Shown one piece after another: positions 5,656 to 42,278 of a stretch of DNA of 43,830 nucleotides. Origin of the DNA: a virus (taxonomy: Duplodnaviria > Heunggongvirae > Uroviricota > Caudoviricetes); the IMG/VR virus record IMGVR_UViG_2684622769_000012, one strand, 5' to 3'. The position numbers were made by a program, and so were the translations under genes. Numbering within the stretch: the stretch's first letter is position 1; the number at the start of each line of letters is the position of its first letter. Below the pieces are notes generated by a model. The model saw nothing but the letters and a program-made list of their open reading frames with translations. It did no database searches and was not told where the DNA came from.

Positions 5656-8600
5656 TTAACATTCCCCCATCACGTCGCATATTTAACAGATTGCCCTGCA
5701 CCCGCTGATCAACCATCCCCATAAGTGCTTTTATTGCCTGAGGGCCAATCTCTCCATTCTGGCCGTCATTTTGAATAGTGATTTGGTATACAGGGGCATA
5801 GGTAATATCTCCGCCTCCATTACCACTTTTACTATTAATAGCTCTGACACCAAGAGAACCATCGGAAGTTCGTGTTAATGGCATAATGGCTTCCGGTCCA
5901 GCCTCACCAAAAACACCAGCCCCTTTTGCAAAAGCAAAAAATTGCGGGGAATCATAAATACCGTTCGAATACGTGCTCAATGACGGAGACTCATAAACAC
6001 CGCCCTTTGCATTCGGAATAAATTTACTAATAGCACTCCCGATAGTTCCTAAAATCCCCCCAGAAGAACTGTTACTAATGCTGTCGAAAATCCCAGTAAT
6101 TGAAGCCTTTAATGCTATTCGACTAAGATCCGAAATCACGGAAGTAGCGAAAGAACGAAAATTTGCCTTGCCTGTCGTGACAAAATCACCCAGCGCATCG
6201 GTCATCCCATCAAACATCTGAGTCGTGGTTGATTTTATCTGCTCACTGATATCCTTAGTGTCATCCAGCCAGTTATTGAATCCCTGGGAGGCACCACTAA
6301 CCCAGTCTCCTGCCTGAATATCGAGCTGCTCGTTTTTCTGTCTGACAATTTCTTTTTCCCGTTCCAGAGCATCATTCAGAGCCTGCATTTTCTCTTGAAA
6401 AACATGATCTGACATTCCACGGGATTTATCTGCATAGTCACGTTCAAGTTGCAGACGCTGATTGTTATATCCATGTTCAATCCGCAGTAATTCCTGCTGG
6501 CGTTGCTGATTTTTATCGCCAACCCCATAACCAGCAATCTGAATATCATACCCCTGCTGACGATTATCAATCGAAGCCTGCAATGAATCACGCCATGCTG
6601 TTATTTCGGCGGATTCCTTGATTAGCCTGTTATTTTTTTCAATCGCAACATTTTTCTCCATCAACGTGGTTATTTCTTCCCGGTGTAAGAGAAGCGATTT
6701 CTGATCCTGGGTTAATTTCGATGATGGTCGTGACTCTAGGTCGGCAATCCGCTGACGCCACTTAACCAGTTCCTGTTCAGAGGAACTTAATTTAACGGTC
6801 AACTCAGCTTGTGAACTTAGTAACGCATTCTGTTGATTCAGATGATCAATCATTCGTTGGGCTGCATCATCAGAATAACCTTTCGCCTTTGGTTGCTTTG
6901 GATCTTTATAACGCTCATTTATTTGAGCGATAAGATTATTATATTCTTCCTTTGAATACTGATTCTTTAGCTTTTCCAGTTTTGCAAGTTCACTAGCTCT
7001 CTGCTGCTCCCGGGTCTGATATTGTTTTGAAAAGGCATCTGCTCTCTGTCTGAGTTCAATTCCTTCCTGTTGTCGCTTGTTGTAATCGTTTATTGATGAA
7101 TTTAGTACGTCCTGAGCAATTTTTTCTGCTTGAAGTACGCCCAATTGCTGCTTTAATCGTGCCAGCCTTTTATTTTGAGCTCCGCCATCTCCAATGCCAC
7201 CTAACCCGAAAACTCCGGGTCGGGTATTTTTTTCTATTTCATCAATTTGACGGAGAACATCTGAGATTTTTTGATCAAGGGAGGCCTCACGGCCAATATC
7301 CAGCATGGAATCCCATGCCCATTTTGCGGAGTCTGCGACAGCTTTCCATGCAGTCTCAAGATAACCAAGATTTTCTTTAATCTGGTTGGTGCGCTGGATC
7401 ATTGAGGATGAGTATTCTTCTGTCGCAATGCGGGCGGCCTCCTGCTGGTTCCCTTCATCCTGTAGCGCCTTAATCTGGTTATAAGTCGCAAGTGTCAGAA
7501 AATGGTACTGATCATTAAGTTTTGATATGGCACTGACAGGATCCTTTGCAATTTCATTGAAGTCATTAACCAGTTGTTCGGTTGATATTCCTGTTACTTC
7601 GCTCGTTTTTACTATCGCTGTCGTCACTTGCTCCAGCGAACTGCTCGCTACCTTTCCCGAACGCACAAGCTGATTTAATACTGCCGCCGCAGCACCAGTT
7701 GTCGAATCAGCCGCATTCCCGGCACGTTGAGCTATATCGCCCAATTGCCCGCTGGTTGTCCCCAACTGATTTCCGGTAAGAATAAGAGATTTATTAAATT
7801 CGTCCTGCTCCTGAGAGCCTTTATAGTAAGCCAGTCCTAAGACCCCAACGGCTGCTGCGGCCAGGGTAAAAGGATTAATTAATCCCAGCACATAAGAACC
7901 TACACCTTTGATCGCCGGGCCAATCCCACCGAACATATCTTTTAGCTGGCCGCCCTGCTGCATTAACACCATAAATGGCGACTGACCAGTGGACAACCCA
8001 ACAACAATATCCGTCATTTGTACAGGCAACATGCGCATAGCAAAAGCCGTTTGTTTTGCCGACATTCCGGTTTTGCTTAATTGTGATTGAGTAACCTCAA
8101 GCTCACTCCGCATAGCACGAAGTTTTCCAGAAAGCTCCTCATACATTTCAGGAGAAAGCATCCCCTTAGCTTTTGCTTCATTGAGCTGTTTCTGTTGTTC
8201 TACCAGACGATTAAAAGCAGTTCCGACAGGATCAAGTTGAGCAATCAGACGTTGCAAAGCAACAACCTGTTCATCATGCGCTTTTGCTGCTTCTCGCTCT
8301 GCCTGAGCCTCTCCGGTAAGCTCTCGCCGTGTTTCCTGTATTTTTCGGCTATAATTCTCAAACTGAGAACCATTTATTTTCCCGGATGCAAACGCAGCAT
8401 TAAGTTCATCATGCTGTTGTTCAAGATTTCTTAGCGCCGCAGCCAGAGGGTCGATCTTGTCCAGCATTCTTTGAAAGGCCTGAGCCTGCGCTTCCTGCTG
8501 GGCGGCAGCAAGTTTTCCGGCCTTCTCGGCTTCTCTCTGCGCTTGCGCAACCCCGCTCAATTCCTCTGTGGTTTCATTAAGTTTACGGACAAGAAATTCA

Positions 8601-8881
8601 TATTCTTCTTTATCAATAAGCCCTTTATCGAAAAATTTCTTTAATTCAGAATAGCGTCGACCGACAGTATCAATTGCGGCACCAACTGGATCAATAGCTG
8701 CTTTTAATTTTGCGAGCGCGTTCTTCTCATCTTCTGTTGCCTTAGTCACTTTCCCTGCGCTATTTGCAGCAGTTTCCCCAGCCTGCGTCATTTTGACTAA
8801 TGAGGAGGTCAGATTGTCAGCATTATTTTTCGCTCCAGTGCTATCAATAATTATTGCGAGACGCGAGGTTTGCTCTGCCAT
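5648..8881 (-). CDS. Tail tape measure protein
   Basis: 1077-aa ORF with long coiled-coil-like Ala/Gln/Glu/Lys-rich N-terminal half and Gly-rich internal segment; lies between chaperone G/GT and gpM. RBS AGGAGT upstream of ATG at 8881. Confidence 0.85.
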
Positions 8882-8900
8882 TTATTAAAACTCCTGACAA

Positions 8901-8926
8901 CAAAAAACCCACCGCGAAGTGGGTTT
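8901..8926 (-). terminator. Hairpin with T-run (minus-strand sense) between GT and the tape measure gene; possible partial terminator or attenuator
   Basis: Plus strand aaacccac-cgcgaa-gtgggttt (8905..8926, 8-bp stem) preceded by caaaaaa; on the minus strand the stem is followed by TTTTTTG. Confidence 0.4.
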
Positions 8927-25220: not shown

Positions 25221-25649
25221 TCAGGGTTTAAAATCCAGCACCCCATTTTGAAATACTTTATATACTTCCGGCGAAGGGGGGGCAGGTATATCAGCATTCT
25301 TTATCGCATTCATCGCTTCACGACATAAATCGAGGTCTCCACTTTCTCTTTTAACCTCCAGTAGAAGGCCATTCGGGGCCATATGCATTCTCAGTGTACA
25401 CTCTTTTCCTGAATACTTACTCGCATCCCCGAACTGTTTTTCGATGGCGCTCTTGATTTGATGGGCATACAGACGGATATCCTCACTAACATCAGAAGTA
25501 CGTTCAGATGAACTCACATACTGTGTCTCTATTGCTTTATCGGAGTAATATGATGTACGGTCATGATAATTTGTCGATACAGCATCAGTGCACCCGATAA
25601 TAATCCCACTAATAATCAACGTAAGAATTGATGCGCTACGAAAACCCAT
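25221..25649 (-). CDS. Lipoprotein with TolA domain III-like C-terminal domain
   Basis: 142-aa ORF; lipobox IIIGC; C-terminal about 85 aa (HQIKSAIEKQFGDASKYSGKECTLRMHMAPNGLLLEVKRESGDLDLCREAMNAIKNADIPAPPSPEVYKVFQNGVLDFKP) closely parallels the E. coli TolA C-terminus as recalled. Confidence 0.7.
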   Translation of the reverse strand: MGFRSASILTLIISGIIIGCTDAVSTNYHDRTSYYSDKAIETQYVSSSERTSDVSEDIRLYAHQIKSAIEKQFGDASKYSGKECTLRMHMAPNGLLLEVKRESGDLDLCREAMNAIKNADIPAPPSPEVYKVFQNGVLDFKP

Positions 25650-26240
25650 TTTTCCTCACATATGTCATATAGTAAAGGATTATATATACCGTTGTTTTGG
25701 ACGCTCAAACAGCGAATCAGATCAAATAAAACGCACATTTGTTAACATTTACACAAAGTCTGCGTGGGATATTCTGAAAGAATATCCATAATGTGGAGAG
25801 AATCTATTGAAGTGCATGGTGCCGGGTGCCTCCCGGTGAACAAAATGTTCGTGATACCTGTCGGCGACAGAAAAGGTTAATGGTATCACCCCACCGCACA
25901 GGGGGATTCACCATGCAGGAGTTTTCTTAGCAAACTCACTGCGCGCCCGGCAACTCCCAACCACATAAAATGCGGAGTTTGTGGCATTTATGCATATAAC
26001 TCGCAGGAATTATCTTAAAAAACTGATGTCGATCCGGATTAAAAAGAAGCAGGTCATCATCAGATGACTGGAAAAAAGGAAAACAAAAAATACTCATCAT
26101 ACAGTTTTGATTGCAGGGATGAGCCTGCTATGCACAATATGCAGAATATAAGCAAGATAAAAATATGCAGGCATATTATTTCGGATCTTGTTATTAACAC
26201 AACCTTTTTAATAATCATTTGGCATACAATAAACCAGCCC

Positions 26241-28122: not shown

Positions 28123-28402
28123 TTCTCAATCTCTCGATGGCGCAGCGCAGCAGATGCCAGTTGTTCAGGCTGACGAATAAAGTATAAATAAACTGGCTAT
28201 GGTGTAAAGCCCCACATAGCATGAACAAACACTACATATCAAATAGCTGGTACAAGGATAGAAATACGACACTTATTATTAAAAACGATTAGATAAATTA
28301 CATTTTAATGTTATGCAAAAGTTCTTTTTTATCATAACATTTCAATAAAAGCATTACAGATGCAATCATCCCGTCATCATCAATTATTTAAGGTGGTTAA
28401 AC

Positions 28403-28489
28403 ATGGAAAATAACAAGTTCGCACATCTCGCTCCTTTTTTATCCGTAATCCTTTTCGCTTGTTGTTTTATATGGGCATTATTTTTATAA
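28403..28489 (+). CDS. Candidate 28-aa hydrophobic micro-protein (MENNKFAHLAPFLSVILFACCFIWALFL)
   Basis: ATG 28403 preceded by AAGGTGG at about 7 nt; single predicted TM helix; stop TAA 28487..28489; in an AT-rich accessory segment. Not in the ORF track (under 60 aa). Confidence 0.3.
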   Translation: MENNKFAHLAPFLSVILFACCFIWALFL

Positions 28490-28935
28490 AGTAGCCACAT
28501 GATAAGTTGCTGGAATCATATTTCCCACTCAAGTCATTAACATTTGATAAGATATATCTAAAAGGACGCCTTTACATTATTTATGCGTATATAATTTATT
28601 TATATACACAGTAAAGGTATCCTGGGAAAATATTTATCGTTAAAAAATACATCATAAATAATTAAGCTGAAATTTCAGAACACAACTAATACACACAATA
28701 AGGTTCAGTAACAGTAATCTATGTGGACTACATCGAGATTTTTTGATTAAACTTTAATAACTTATTCCTAACACACAGAATGCATAAACTAAAAGTAAAA
28801 CAAATAGTTATACGAAAAACAACCATATTTATTCTATCTTCTCCTCTAATCAACATATCAATTATGTGTTTCATAACAGCTTGACATAACCCTCCAAAAG
28901 ATGCATTTTTAATGCATGTTTTGGAGGAGGTGGTT

Positions 28936-29274
28936 ATGACACACAAGAGAATTCCTAAAGATTGGGTAATCAAACGCTCAACTCCGTTCTTCACAAAAGA
29001 GAACGTACCTTCAGCGTTATTAACACATCATAATACAGCAGCAGGTGTTTTTGGGCAGTTGTGCGTAATGGAAGGCACTGTAACATATTATGGTTTTACT
29101 GATGAGAATGCTACTGAACCGGAGATAAAAGTAGTCATTAATGCTGGCGCTTTTGCAACAAGCCCACCACAATACTGGCACCGTGTTGAACTAAGCGATG
29201 ATGCTCAGTTTAATATTAACTTTTGGGTCGCTCCAGACTTTTCGGGCGAAAAAGTCTATAGCACCAAAAAATAG
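28936..29274 (+). CDS. YeaR-like DUF1971 protein (TehB-N-terminal-domain-like), moron
   Basis: Start MTHKRIPKDW... (ATG 28936, RBS GGAGGAGGTGG upstream); RSTPFFTKENVPSALL...VMEGTVTYYGF...NINFWVAPDF parallels E. coli YeaR as recalled; opposite strand to surrounding phage genes. Confidence 0.65.
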   Translation: MTHKRIPKDWVIKRSTPFFTKENVPSALLTHHNTAAGVFGQLCVMEGTVTYYGFTDENATEPEIKVVINAGAFATSPPQYWHRVELSDDAQFNINFWVAPDFSGEKVYSTKK

Positions 29275-29340: not shown

Positions 29341-29894
29341 GTAAATATATTGGTTCTACATTGACAGGAGACTTCAACCATAAGAAGTAATCTGAATACT
29401 TGAGCAATAAATTTACTTAAGATTAATGAGCGCACCTTGCCGGACAAAGATAAACCAAGGTAACACCTTTTTTCTAGCCAGTATGTAATCAATCAGAAAG
29501 CCGCTCCATAAGAACAACAGCAAGACAATAAATTGCCATTACAGCCGCAATAGCCAGCGCACATTTGAGAACCAGCACGACAACCCCCTGTATTAGACGC
29601 ACACCAGTCCTGATAAATATGAGGCTGTCTCGTCAGTGATTCAATACAACTATTGGGTATAGTTTCTGTGATTTTATTCTGTAGAAATGGAACACAACAA
29701 CCAGTCACCACCAGCACTTCCTTAAATGCTCTAAGTCAGAAACAAGCCAACATTTTAGTCCGCTTTGAGCGATCTGCAGACATTGCTAGCAGCCTTCTGT
29801 GTGAATTCTCAGGGAGCAGGTCGGCATAGCATCACGTTGAGGCTCTTACCCTACTTGTTCACACCAACCCTAACTCCACAGACTGATTCATAAA

Positions 29895-30896
29895 TTAGTA
29901 ATCTGCGTGTTTCGCACTTTTCAGAAATGCTTTCATATTTTCATTAGGTCGCTCAATTTCGAAGTTACTTCCATATAACTCTTGTAATTTTGGCCATAAC
30001 TTACTTAATAACCCTCTCCTGCGATAAAATGGATGTATCCAAACGGTAGATAGGTACGGAGAATTTGCATTTGAATTGTTTATTGTGACCAGCCCAACTA
30101 AACATTGTCGATAACCACTATTATCCATTGATTGTATTTCTTCGACGAATGGATACGCGATTACATCAGTCCAACCATGATCGGTTGTATCCCATTGCAT
30201 TCCGTCATGACATTCCTTCGACTGATAGCGGCGTAAAGCTACACACGCGAGCTTTTGCCAATCTGGAGAATTAATTGTGATCTCTTCATCGTATGACGCG
30301 CCTATTGGAGCGGGTATTGGTCTGATTAATCCAGCATGGCATTCATCATAGAACTTCATGTTTCCCTCAGAAACGTTGTGTACGTTGGGTTGCTCCATGT
30401 GTGCGCCATTCAAAAATAGCTCTGATAGTAGTGTATCTACACTGTAATCTTTATTGATTATTGTCGGCTTAGAGTTTTTCTTATTAAGGCCGCGAGTAAC
30501 GATTTTTTGATCAATGTTAACAACATGGAATAATCCGTCGGGGAGGCTAGCGAACCACGATGGGGCATCGGACCAGAATAGCATGCCTTTTGTACTTCTT
30601 AAGAGTTTAATTAAGTTAATACAAGCTTCTTCACTAGTCTTGCCGTTGATGCGAAGTATGTTAGGACTAAAGTAATATTCATCCATATCAGGGAATGCAG
30701 CTTCGCAAAACTCCTGTACATAATTTAGCACCTGGATTCTACAGAGATCATCATAGCTGGTAATAACTAAGGGGGTATCTTCATTACTATTATGATTATC
30801 AATAATGCAATCTATAGCGAGACTTACTGCTTTGCGTATCACTTCAGTTGAATCTAACGACTCTAAAAATTTTGTCTTTCGTGTGCGAATATCCAT
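29895..30896 (-). CDS. Hypothetical 333-aa protein, second gene of AT-rich accessory cassette (weak GNAT-like C-terminal motif)
   Basis: ATG 30894..30896 lies 15 nt after the stop of the upstream gene; AT-rich codon usage; C-terminal VWIHPFYRRRGLLSKLWPKL vaguely resembles the acetyl-CoA binding motif of GNATs; no other recognisable motif. Confidence 0.5.
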   Translation of the reverse strand: MDIRTRKTKFLESLDSTEVIRKAVSLAIDCIIDNHNSNEDTPLVITSYDDLCRIQVLNYVQEFCEAAFPDMDEYYFSPNILRINGKTSEEACINLIKLLRSTKGMLFWSDAPSWFASLPDGLFHVVNIDQKIVTRGLNKKNSKPTIINKDYSVDTLLSELFLNGAHMEQPNVHNVSEGNMKFYDECHAGLIRPIPAPIGASYDEEITINSPDWQKLACVALRRYQSKECHDGMQWDTTDHGWTDVIAYPFVEEIQSMDNSGYRQCLVGLVTINNSNANSPYLSTVWIHPFYRRRGLLSKLWPKLQELYGSNFEIERPNENMKAFLKSAKHADY

Positions 30897-30911
30897 GTAT
30901 GACCTGCGCTA

Positions 30912-31934
30912 TTAAAATTCATGAATGAACGGTTTGTCATCTGGTTGCAAAATGGTGGTTTTATTCGTTGCTACATTTAAACTGTTGTAGAGCATAATTG
31001 CCAGGTTCGATGCATTTTCAATCAGCGTTTCAAGATCCTGGTCTGTAATCACTACGAGGTTCCCTTCTTTATCCTTTCCACCACGATGCACTAAGTGATT
31101 TCGATTGAGGGTTGCCAATTCAATAGCTTCTATCGGACAGTCTTTTTGTACTTTTATATCGAATGTAGCTTCATAGCGGTCGATTACCTTTTTAGTGCTA
31201 TGCCAGCTTGCACTGATCAAGTGTTCCTTGATTGACCTGATTAGCTCTCCCCTAATTTTCTCGATGGGTTCACCCTTGAAAGGCAACGCAGCAATATCTT
31301 TGCTTACTTTAAATTCAGTCTTACCTTTTTCTATACAATTGGCTATGTAGACATCATCTTTCTCTATAGAATTAATGAATAGCTCAACATAAAGCGTTTC
31401 CAAAGCTGTAATAACATTCGTGTAGAGCAAACTAAGCAAGTGGTTTTTTTGCTGTTGTTCAGTTTTATCTTTTGCAAGTTTTTTTATTTTATCGATATTA
31501 TCAATGAATTTTAAATACGGATTACCGGAAGACGTTACAGCGTCGTAGATATCATCATCGTACCAATCATCTATATTATTTGAGTTTCCAGACCAGTCAA
31601 AACATTGTGTTTGTAATTCATCTACTAATTCCTCAATATACTCAGATTTAACATATTGACCGAAGATGGATTGTAGTTCTTCGCTCGCATCATACGGCCC
31701 GCCATATATGTAAGCATAGCCACCTTCTCTACTTTCATACGGACAAGCATTTGCCGGATCTTCAAAGTTTTCAAAGAACCAGTTTTTCATTACTTCGAGT
31801 TGATCTTTTTTGCTTATGTATTTTAAAGATTTTAGTGGAACTTTCTTTCCATTAACCTCGAAAACAATTTTCACGATGTAACGCTCCCTTGTATCAATTG
31901 CGCAACTATTATACCACAGCGAAATACAGGGCAT
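30912..31934 (-). CDS. Hypothetical about 340-aa protein with HEPN-like R-x4-H motif, first gene of AT-rich accessory cassette
   Basis: ORF 30912..32003; preferred start ATG 31932..31934 (MPCISLWYN...) with AGGAGG 6 nt upstream; alternative in-frame GTG at 31874 with AGGGAG upstream. Motif LNRNHLVHRGG near the C-terminus. Confidence 0.5.
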   Translation of the reverse strand: MPCISLWYNSCAIDTRERYIVKIVFEVNGKKVPLKSLKYISKKDQLEVMKNWFFENFEDPANACPYESREGGYAYIYGGPYDASEELQSIFGQYVKSEYIEELVDELQTQCFDWSGNSNNIDDWYDDDIYDAVTSSGNPYLKFIDNIDKIKKLAKDKTEQQQKNHLLSLLYTNVITALETLYVELFINSIEKDDVYIANCIEKGKTEFKVSKDIAALPFKGEPIEKIRGELIRSIKEHLISASWHSTKKVIDRYEATFDIKVQKDCPIEAIELATLNRNHLVHRGGKDKEGNLVVITDQDLETLIENASNLAIMLYNSLNVATNKTTILQPDDKPFIHEF

Positions 31935-32072
31935 AACCTGCCTCCTTAAACTAACATACCATGAGCCAGCAATGTCCGCTATTGGCACAAAGCGGACAAC
32001 CACGCTAGCTCTCCCCTGTGCCAGAAAAATGTCAATTTACATATGAACTAATGCTCTTTGATCTAGTAACGT

Positions 32073-32489
32073 CTATAAATACCGAAGATTTCCTTGATAA
32101 AATGCCAGTACACGTTTCATAACTTCACTCTTCCGGCACTCGCGACAGATTATGTTCTGACGCCTGTCATAGCGGCGTATTTCTCCGTCTGGTAATGACC
32201 AGATAAGGTCAGGATCAACCACAACCGTTTTTTTCACCTTTGCCCTGGATAGTTTTTTGCGGGCGTTTTTCCAATCCTTACGAGCCTGTTCAGACGGGAA
32301 TAACCCATAGCCAGAGTTGTATACATCGCCACTGGCAACCAACTCTCTGGCAAGAATGCTCATCAGATATCTTGTCGCACCTGTCTTGGCCTCCAGTTGC
32401 CTTAACGTCTCGCGCCCACTCTGGCGTACCAACTCAACAACCTGCTCCTTAATTTTTTCACGCTCTTCCTGTGTAAAAACTTTTGCCAT
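32073..32489 (-). CDS. Small basic hypothetical protein, possible winged-helix regulator, upstream of the accessory cassette
   Basis: Start MAKVFTQEEREKIKEQ (ATG 32487..32489) with GGAGG 6 nt upstream; C-terminal CRECRK; 138-nt gap to the next gene. Confidence 0.4.
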   Translation of the reverse strand: MAKVFTQEEREKIKEQVVELVRQSGRETLRQLEAKTGATRYLMSILARELVASGDVYNSGYGLFPSEQARKDWKNARKKLSRAKVKKTVVVDPDLIWSLPDGEIRRYDRRQNIICRECRKSEVMKRVLAFYQGNLRYL

Positions 32490-42089: not shown

Positions 42090-42278
42090 ATGTATAAAAT
42101 TACCGCCACTATTGAAAAGGAAGGTGGCACTCCTACTAACTGGACAAGATATTCAAAATCTAAACTAACGAAATCAGAATGCGAAAAAATGCTCTCAGGT
42201 AAAAAAGAAGCAGGCGTTTCCAGAGAGCAGAAAGTAAAACTGATAAATTTTAATTGCGAGAAACTTCAGTCCTCGTGA
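42090..42278 (+). CDS. ydaC: Rac small protein YdaC (DUF1187)
   Basis: MYKITATIEKEGGTPTNWTRYSKSKLTKSECEKMLSGKKEAGVSREQKVKLINFNCEKLQSS; RBS GGAGG 5 nt upstream of ATG 42090. Confidence 0.7.
   Translation: MYKITATIEKEGGTPTNWTRYSKSKLTKSECEKMLSGKKEAGVSREQKVKLINFNCEKLQSS

Follow-up and report, generated by a model that had tools for sequence, protein, structure and literature searches.

A HEPN–GNAT gene pair in the variable slot of a Rac-type prophage corresponds to the anti-phage system DS-33

HEPN proteins are metal-independent RNases whose dimers build a composite site from the R-x4-6-H motifs. The GNAT toxins of toxin–antitoxin (TA) systems are small, single-domain proteins of ~170 aa with an adjacent RHH/DUF1778 antitoxin. 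Among the described systems closest to the locus studied here, PD-T4-2 (Vassallo et al. 2022) combines a DUF262 protein with a HEPN protein, for which PF18735 is listed (PMC10952713). Tha, from S. aureus prophages, is reported to be activated by phage tail proteins (PMC11087260). The experimental validation of DS-33 comes from the DefensePredictor paper (Science 2026; PMC13092281), in which it was cloned with its native promoter on a low-copy plasmid in MG1655 and challenged with 24 phages.

The window, a stretch of 43,830 nucleotides from a member of the Caudoviricetes (IMG/VR record IMGVR_UViG_2684622769_000012), carries a Rac-type prophage with two minus-strand ORFs, A followed by B, between the replication and nin genes (Table 1). 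Both ORFs and the 15-nt gap between them are as described in the original prediction, which was made from the raw sequence. Protein A (30912..31874, 320 aa from GTG) is identical at 320/320 positions to DS-33A (WP_014639476.1; sequence in Table S8 of PMC13092281), and protein B (29895..30896, 333 aa) is identical at 332/333 positions to DS-33B (WP_000354965.1), the sole difference being residue 289, Pro in the window and Leu in the tested protein. The published coordinates of DS-33 (6922-7884 and 7900-8901) give the same 15-nt spacing, and gene order and strand also match, with B directly downstream of A in both. Both loci are E. coli accessory-genome cargo, the window copy being housed in a Rac-type prophage. 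The match was found solely via the supplementary tables of PMC13092281; its main text contains no individual discussion of DS-33, and literature searches with the WP accessions, HEPN_RES_NTD1, RiboL-PSP and DS-33 in main texts returned nothing specific. The window locus is thus DS-33 and, since the system has been published and tested, no discovery. The earlier reading of a prophage-borne anti-phage system is borne out by this identity, a real defence system having been correctly flagged from raw sequence; the description of the module as new does not stand.

Table 1 Features of the DS-33 locus in the window
Feature	Coordinates	Strand	Description or basis
DS-33A, defence effector	30912..31874	-	320 aa from GTG, MKIVFEVNGKK...; N-terminal HEPN/RES-NTD1 and C-terminal RiboL-PSP-type HEPN (predicted)
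A N-terminal alpha/beta domain, HEPN/RES-NTD1, aa ~1-115	31530..31874	-	PF18870, homologue conservation
A HEPN domain, aa ~119-308	30951..31520	-	
Catalytic HEPN motif R258-N-H-L-V-H263-R264	31083..31103	-	Invariance and R258A mutant
Putative expression signals inside cassette	31872..31916	-	Extended -10 TGgTATAAT 31916..31908; Shine-Dalgarno AGGGAG 31889..31884; GTG 31874..31872; from sequence
DS-33B, accessory protein, 333 aa	29895..30896	-	N-terminal degenerate P-loop-like alpha/beta domain aa ~1-165; C-terminal GNAT fold aa ~175-333
B codon P289	30030..30032	-	P in window, L in tested DS-33B allele
Mobile A+B cassette extent	29853..31933	.	DNA span shared with Aeromonas caviae element
Protein C, DUF977/Ren-like, equivalent to the ydaW slot in K-12 Rac	32073..32489/32504	-	PF06163 E 3.3e-31, 108.6 bits; phrog_142

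Table S7 of PMC13092281 reports log10 protection in two replicates each and shows that DS-33 blocks T7, T3, Bas67 and Bas26 by 2-6 logs, with wild-type values of 3.78/2.60, 3.30/2.40, 4.0/1.98 and 5.0/5.9, respectively. Deletion of the HEPN gene reduced protection to ~0 for all phages, and the R258A mutation left values of at most 0.78 for all phages, with defence lost in both replicates. Protection was kept or raised upon deletion of B (ΔGNAT: T7 4.78/4.30, T3 3.30/3.30, Bas67 4.0/3.30, Bas26 5.0/4.9). The mutant assays covered five phages, and B, as the L289 allele, was not needed against those five. As B was tested only as this allele, the native P289 protein, or B on the rest of the panel, may prove less dispensable. 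The cloning and phage-challenge experiment proposed in the original prediction had already been done in PMC13092281, including a mutant of the motif, and had revealed phage protection; phage resistance that depends on the HEPN gene is published for a protein identical to window A.

The A reading frame offers several starts: the longest ORF (30912..32003) encodes 363 aa from a GTG, an ATG at 31934 gives 340 aa, and a GTG at 31874 gives 320 aa. The last was preferred because homologues, the PGAP annotation and the published protein begin there and the upstream ATG is unconserved; the starts at ATG 31934 and GTG 32003 were rejected. The ATG at 31934, which is preceded by AAGGAGG, is not conserved in Aeromonas. 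A -10-like TAYAAT-AGTTG block together with the GTG is kept in Serratia and Aeromonas, including a locus that holds A only (L004). The extended -10 sequence, the AGGGAG and the in-frame GTG noticed earlier are all present, and this GTG is the conserved start. We infer from the sequence that the extended -10 is the promoter of the cassette; it is absent from the output of a consensus promoter scan, which requires a -35 hexamer. A search for an intrinsic terminator downstream of B found none.

The domain assignment of A draws on family membership and predicted fold, the window protein's own Pfam scores being sub-threshold. For the N-terminal domain, PF18870 scores 22.2 bits on the window protein (E 1.9e-4), under the gathering score of 27.4, and matches 60/63 homologues at E <=0.01. 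The best-conserved block in the homologue alignment, WFxxNFEDP...GGPYDA, lies in this N-terminal domain, and the NTD1 domain is elsewhere fused to PIN_8 and other C-terminal domains. We infer that this is a sensor or regulatory domain. A also carries the alpha-helical bundle fold of HEPN proteins. PF18735 (RiboL-PSP-HEPN) has no match in window A at E <=1 and matches 33/63 homologues (best 7e-11). The AlphaFold2 pTM of 0.66 leaves the mutual orientation of the two domains uncertain. The segment LATLNRNHLVHRGG is present in A, and R258, H263 and R264 (320-aa numbering) do not vary among the 63 homologues; this invariance indicates more than a chance R-x4-H match. A second R-x4-H match in A, RSIKEH at 213, is unconserved and is attributed to chance. 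The R-x4-H motif originally read as a HEPN signature is hence real and essential, R258A abolishing defence (PMC13092281, Table S7). As had also been stated earlier, neither A nor B contains a Walker A motif. Scanning both proteins with PADLOC and NCBIfam models gave nothing useful, and PDB sequence-profile searches with the two proteins gave chance-level matches only.

The weak GNAT-like C-terminal segment ascribed to B, VWIHPFYRRRGLLSKLW, is present and corresponds to a near-threshold PF00583 score (19.9 bits against a cut-off of 20.7) and to a GNAT fold in the fold test. Within motif A (Q/R-x-x-G-x-G/A), R292 is invariant, G295 is mostly kept and the last G/A position is not kept. P289 is invariant in 44/44 aligned B-family sequences, window B included, and near-identical B copies in the fetched loci have P289 in 25/25 cases and Leu in none. 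The tested DS-33B is a rare allele in which Leu replaces an invariant residue, so that its function may have been compromised from the outset. A profile search with the B N-terminal domain alone retrieved same-family fragments only and no new architectures. Stand-alone, GNAT-only relatives of 150-170 aa exist; one of them, in a phage, immediately follows a DUF3987 primase-like gene. For one apparent B variant, P0148, most matches reflect a replaced N-terminus, perhaps connected with the IS2 insertion that strain O78 carries.

The AT-rich insertion described earlier is evident in the base composition, with GC fractions of 0.36-0.39 against ~0.50 in the flanks (A 0.361, B 0.391, cassette 0.380; DUF977 gene 0.47, DUF1627 gene 0.50, ydaV 0.53; whole window 0.458). 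The cassette is indeed missing from K-12 Rac, as had been stated, but a ydaW-to-rzpR deletion takes out the whole region there, so that K-12 is uninformative as an empty site. The small gene upstream, whose stop lies the reported 138 nt from ATG 31934, encodes a DUF977 protein, and ydaW fills this slot in K-12 Rac. It had been suggested that this gene regulates the cassette. We rejected this role because the Aeromonas copy lacks the gene and DNA homology ends at 31933. The DUF977 gene lies outside the conserved cassette, the upstream gene in Aeromonas is unrelated, and the DUF977 gene is present in prophages with different cargo in the same slot; it is flanking prophage backbone. Downstream of it, the place of the cassette is taken in other prophages by PADLOC Hp1-Hp3 or a PD-T7-3-like gene. 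The slot is a defence hotspot of Rac/Qin-type prophages, in agreement with the location originally proposed.

The cassette DNA is 86% identical, over exactly 29853..31933, to a mobilisable element of Aeromonas caviae (L085-L087), and Serratia grimesii shares 97% DNA identity over 29821..31997. A–B order and the 15-nt spacing are kept in E. coli, Serratia and Aeromonas (79-98% protein identity). A lies beside B in only 2/47 full-length A loci, counted as one genome per species. Close A homologues stand alone beside sucD, a phage portal gene or an integrase, and the spread of A extends from Gammaproteobacteria to Acidobacteriota, Chloroflexota and cyanobacteria. Conversely, Shewanella, Serratia, Marinomonas, an environmental defence island and viral contigs harbour B without A, with identities reaching 86%. 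Lone B-family genes lie by ParE/PaaA2 in a Serratia conjugative element, by Abi_2 in Marinomonas, and in a TerB/BrxCD/Mrr/HEPN-Toprim island, and one locus (L088) keeps B with a 72-nt remnant of the A 3' end. B is an independently mobile gene. The INPHARED phage collection contained no copy of the cassette. The two-gene module as first read is therefore not obligate, defence being intact or stronger in ΔB and each gene standing alone in many elements. These data add to the published system that the HEPN effector A is widespread as a gene on its own and that its NTD1 module is common to PIN-type and other effectors.

We consider it very probable that DS-33 is cargo of the variable slot just downstream of DUF977 in a Rac-type lambdoid prophage, with A as a working HEPN effector and B as an accessory. 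By analogy with other HEPN proteins, DS-33A would be kept inactive in uninfected cells, most likely via its N-terminal domain, until a phage cue turns it on; the active protein would then cleave RNA (tRNA, rRNA or mRNA), and the resulting stop in translation would stop phage production. DS-33B would be co-transcribed accessory cargo that at most damps A. A stronger role for B, in which the two proteins form a functional pair and the GNAT protein restrains or tunes the HEPN protein, perhaps by acetylating A or its RNA substrate, appears unlikely. The A–B unit does move intact between prophage and mobilisable element with its order and 15-nt spacing kept across genera, ΔB raised T7 protection by 1.0 and 1.7 logs and T5, T3 or Bas67 protection in at least one replicate (PMC13092281), and there is precedent for a partner enzyme that neutralises a HEPN protein (PMC13000451). 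However, A occurs without B in ~45/47 species-level loci and B without A in several elements, altered expression or polarity could account for the rise in protection, the deleted B carried L289 and was perhaps impaired already, and B cannot be an essential antitoxin, since the ΔB strain is viable.

The evidence is evenly balanced on whether B is instead unrelated cargo beside A, a second defence gene or one that benefits the mobile element (anti-defence, host takeover) with targets of its own. B-family genes found alone in Serratia, Marinomonas and the defence island, the GNAT-only relatives, the locus with B and an A remnant, and the low DefensePredictor log-odds of B (1.08, against 9.45 for A; PMC13092281) all point this way, whereas the ΔHEPN strain, which retains B as the L289 allele, was unprotected against five phages, and the tight 15-nt linkage is kept across genera. 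A classical TA addiction module, with A or B as toxin and prophage stabilisation rather than defence as its function, is highly improbable: HEPN and GNAT are both known TA toxin folds, but this reading is already contradicted by the viable ΔA and ΔB constructs, both single-gene deletion strains being plateable and assayable. Moreover, A and B each stand alone in many genomes, no small RHH, DUF1778 or MNT partner is present, and B, with two domains and 333 aa, is unlike the ~170-aa GNAT toxins. In a bolder reading, which we regard as unlikely, B is no passenger but a new kind of regulator or independent conflict gene built from a degenerate P-loop-like and a GNAT domain. By acetylating either the HEPN effector or the RNA on which that effector acts, it would determine how readily the effector fires, in a GNAT version of type VII HepT/MntA control; alternatively, it would work by itself in mobile elements, in defence or anti-defence; the 'dispensable' result would then stem partly from the L289 allele.

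Among known systems, the GNAT TA toxins (TacT, AtaT, KacT, ItaT) share the GNAT fold with B. Unlike them, B is a two-domain protein of 333 aa, is accompanied by no RHH/DUF1778 antitoxin or small partner ORF, and keeps motif A only in part (R292-x-x-G295, the third position not being G/A); these toxins pair with an antitoxin, whereas ΔA strains of DS-33 are viable. HepT/MntA (type VII TA) resembles DS-33 in placing a HEPN RNase beside a modifying enzyme and serves only as a model for the action of B on A. Its partner, which neutralises the HEPN RNase by modifying it, is an MNT nucleotidyltransferase, whereas that of DS-33 is the GNAT-fold B; no MNT domain was found in B or neighbouring genes, B is dispensable and A is non-toxic without it. 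PD-T4-2 shares with A the predicted RiboL-PSP-HEPN subtype, and A is listed as a remote homologue of PD-T4-2_B with a probability of 96.1 over 55% of the protein (PMC13092281, tables). PADLOC PD-T4-2 models gave no match to A at E <=1, PADLOC gave none for B, and the cassette contains no DUF262 gene: in place of the DUF262 partner of PD-T4-2, DS-33A itself carries a predicted HEPN/RES-NTD1 domain. DS-33A resembles Tha (PMC11087260) and DS-11 (CBS+HEPN), each a single prophage or accessory polypeptide that joins an essential HEPN motif to a separate regulatory domain. The sensor domains differ, NTD1 in DS-33A and CBS in DS-11 being unrelated.

The cassette is an already known system and is not new. 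A full-text literature search led to the DefensePredictor study (PMC13092281, Science 2026). Its supplementary tables give WP_014639476.1 and WP_000354965.1 as the subunits DS-33A and DS-33B of a system called 'GNAT', or DS-33; DS-33 is not individually discussed in the main text of that paper. The HEPN protein of the window (A) is identical to DS-33A, while the GNAT-fold protein (B) differs from DS-33B (WP_000354965.1) solely at residue 289, which is Pro in the window vs Leu in the tested clone. The defence and HEPN reading of the original prediction stands, but its novelty does not. The published assays exposed MG1655 to 24 phages, each unit being expressed from its native promoter on a low-copy plasmid (PMC13092281).

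Log10 protection by DS-33 and its variants, two replicates per value (PMC13092281, Table S7)
Variant	T7	T3	Bas67	Bas26	T5
Wild type	3.78/2.60	3.30/2.40	4.0/1.98	5.0/5.9	0.77/0.08
Delta-HEPN	0.08/-0.30	-0.48/0	0/-0.18	0.52/0.30	0.54/0.08
R258A	0.78/0.46	-0.30/0.30	0.52/0	0.74/0.43	0.37/0.30
Delta-GNAT	4.78/4.30	3.30/3.30	4.0/3.30	5.0/4.9	1.73/0.55

These values indicate that A and its HEPN arginine are needed, whereas loss of B is tolerated or mildly beneficial to defence; they show that A can protect on its own in a HEPN-dependent manner (PMC13092281). The assignment of the R-x4-H motif to a HEPN defence protein was right, as both R258A and Delta-HEPN lose protection. By contrast, the two-gene architecture is not supported as the functional unit, since Delta-GNAT still protects and A and B are found apart.

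Features of the cassette, its surroundings and comparison loci
Feature	Coordinates	Strand	Detail
A, longest form	30912..32003	-	363 aa from GTG
A, alternative starts	ATG 31934; GTG 31874	-	340 aa; 320 aa
B	29895..30896	-	333 aa
Codon 289 of B	30030..30032
DNA homologous in Aeromonas	29853..31933		A, B, ~60 nt upstream
RalA sRNA	42096..42274	-	RF02694, 225 bits
STnc100 sRNA match	25760..25946	-	RF02076, 86.6 bits
142-aa ORF	25221..25649
AT-rich stretch	28123..28911		GC 0.305
DUF1971 gene	28912..29274	+	PF09313, E 2.6e-26
Alternative-cargo loci, Rac/Qin-type prophages	L091 1799..4801; L093 1152..2501; L092 4140..4949
PIN_8-NTD1 protein	L070 403..1626
Alphaproteobacterial NTD1 proteins	L062, L064, L068, L075 around 7920..8830		~280-300 aa
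E. coli O78 strain 3 cassette	NZ_CP084096.1 2831682..2835318
Region in the Aeromonas caviae element	L085 7212..8293
Region with the phage GNAT relative	L121 1691..3483		relative of 160 aa

In Pfam searches, window A scored 22.2 bits against HEPN/RES-NTD1, below the cut-off of 27.4; among 63 aligned A homologues, PF18870 is matched by 60 and PF18735 (RiboL-PSP-HEPN) by 33 (best 7e-11). Residues R258, H263 and R264 are invariant in this alignment, as are W224, H225 and E159. The AlphaFold2 model of A (pLDDT 88.8) places an alpha/beta domain at the N-terminus and a helical bundle at the C-terminus. A may be an autoinhibited RNase, with the N-terminal domain sensing or transducing a phage cue. HEPN/RES-NTD1 also forms the C-terminal part of a PIN_8 nuclease and lies N-terminally in many alphaproteobacterial proteins whose C-terminal halves match no Pfam family; such fusions fit a portable regulatory module.

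The quoted strings LATLNRNHLVHRGG and VWIHPFYRRRGLLSKLW, the TGgTATAAT element (31916..31908), AGGGAG (31889..31884) and GTG 31874 were all located where the prediction put them, and neither A nor B has a Walker A motif, as claimed. A homologues are mostly 310-320 aa, beginning at the residue encoded by this GTG, which is kept with the upstream -10-like block in Serratia and Aeromonas; the ATG is not kept in Aeromonas.

The surroundings, including ydaT/ydaU/ydaV, sieB, kilR and the RalA sRNA, identify a Rac-type prophage. RalA serves as antitoxin to RalR in a type I toxin-antitoxin pair (RalR/RalA) that is characteristic of Rac. The GC contents of A (0.361) and B (0.391), which are 15 nt apart, compare with 0.458 for the whole window and 0.47-0.53 for the flanking DUF977, DUF1627 and ydaV genes. 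K-12 Rac does lack the cassette, as proposed, but it also lacks the whole ydaW-to-rzpR stretch. The small DUF977 gene, put forward as a wHTH regulator, is not supported as part of the functional unit: the Aeromonas homology includes the -10 element but leaves DUF977 out, and an unrelated gene lies upstream there. DUF977 occupies the ydaW position of K-12 Rac, which marks it as a backbone gene, and it is retained in prophages whose slot carries different cargo. The slot downstream of DUF977 holds a three-gene cassette matching PADLOC Hp1/Hp2/Hp3 in NCTC9066, a DUF4145 protein matching PD-T7-3 in another strain and a 269-aa protein in a third; the Hp1-Hp3 and PD-T7-3-like cargo identifies a defence hotspot.

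Elsewhere in the window, the STnc100 match lies upstream of the 142-aa ORF; at the equivalent position, the NCTC9112 annotation has a TolA C-terminal-domain protein. The AT-rich stretch holds no ORF of at least 70 aa on either strand except one of 88 aa overlapping the next gene; an oppositely oriented DUF1971 (TehB N-terminal-like) gene follows the stretch. This region, which separates the DS-33 cassette from the DUF1367 nin gene, resembles a further moron.

A and B, always 15 nt apart, are kept as a unit in E. coli (205 of 5426 complete genomes), in Serratia and in a mobilisable element of Aeromonas caviae. This relaxase-bearing element also carries, ~1.2 kb from the cassette on the opposite strand, a SIR2 + cREC_REC pair, probably a further defence system. 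In E. coli O78 strain 3, a cassette 100% identical to the window is interrupted by IS2 (two pieces over 3637 bp; query 2301 bp). With one genome per species, B adjoins A in 2 of 47 full-length A loci, namely in Serratia grimesii and on a contig from a Collinsella MAG. This contig (JAIHTM010000277.1, 3.3 kb; DUF977-A-B, A and B ~100% and DNA 97% identical to the window) most likely comes from an E. coli prophage and was mis-binned. The A family extends to Acidobacteriota, Chloroflexota, cyanobacteria and others, usually without a conserved neighbour; close A-only homologues adjoin sucD, a phage portal gene or an integrase.

The B family comprises just 66 clusters at 90% identity, and the named ones are all Gammaproteobacteria. 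The AlphaFold2 model of B (pLDDT 90.3) has two domains, Foldseek matches among viral structures include acetyltransferases, and the Pfam GNAT score is slightly sub-threshold (19.9; cut-off 20.7), with motif A partly retained. In an exhaustive profile search, the GNAT half had stand-alone relatives of 150-170 aa, and the two-domain form was rare. One such relative, on a phage contig, matches the B profile at E 1.5e-37; its gene shares 4 nt with the end of a DUF3987 primase-like gene, and the terminase gene is located downstream.

The data allow B to damp A, given the increased protection when B is deleted (PMC13092281) and the conserved A-B linkage. Pro289 is present in all 44 aligned B family members, window B included, and in 25 of 25 near-identical copies from fetched loci; the published dispensability of B thus comes from a rare, possibly impaired allele. 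An independent function of B is favoured by its solo occurrence in several settings and by the placement of the phage GNAT relative after a primase-like gene. Copies of B lacking A are found in elements of Shewanella and Serratia (the latter conjugative), beside Abi_2 in Marinomonas, in a TerB/BrxCD/Mrr/HEPN-Toprim island and on viral contigs (86% identity); at one B-only locus, 72 nt of the 3' end of A remain, indicating that A was lost. Collectively, the comparative evidence points the same way as the published DS-33 phenotypes.
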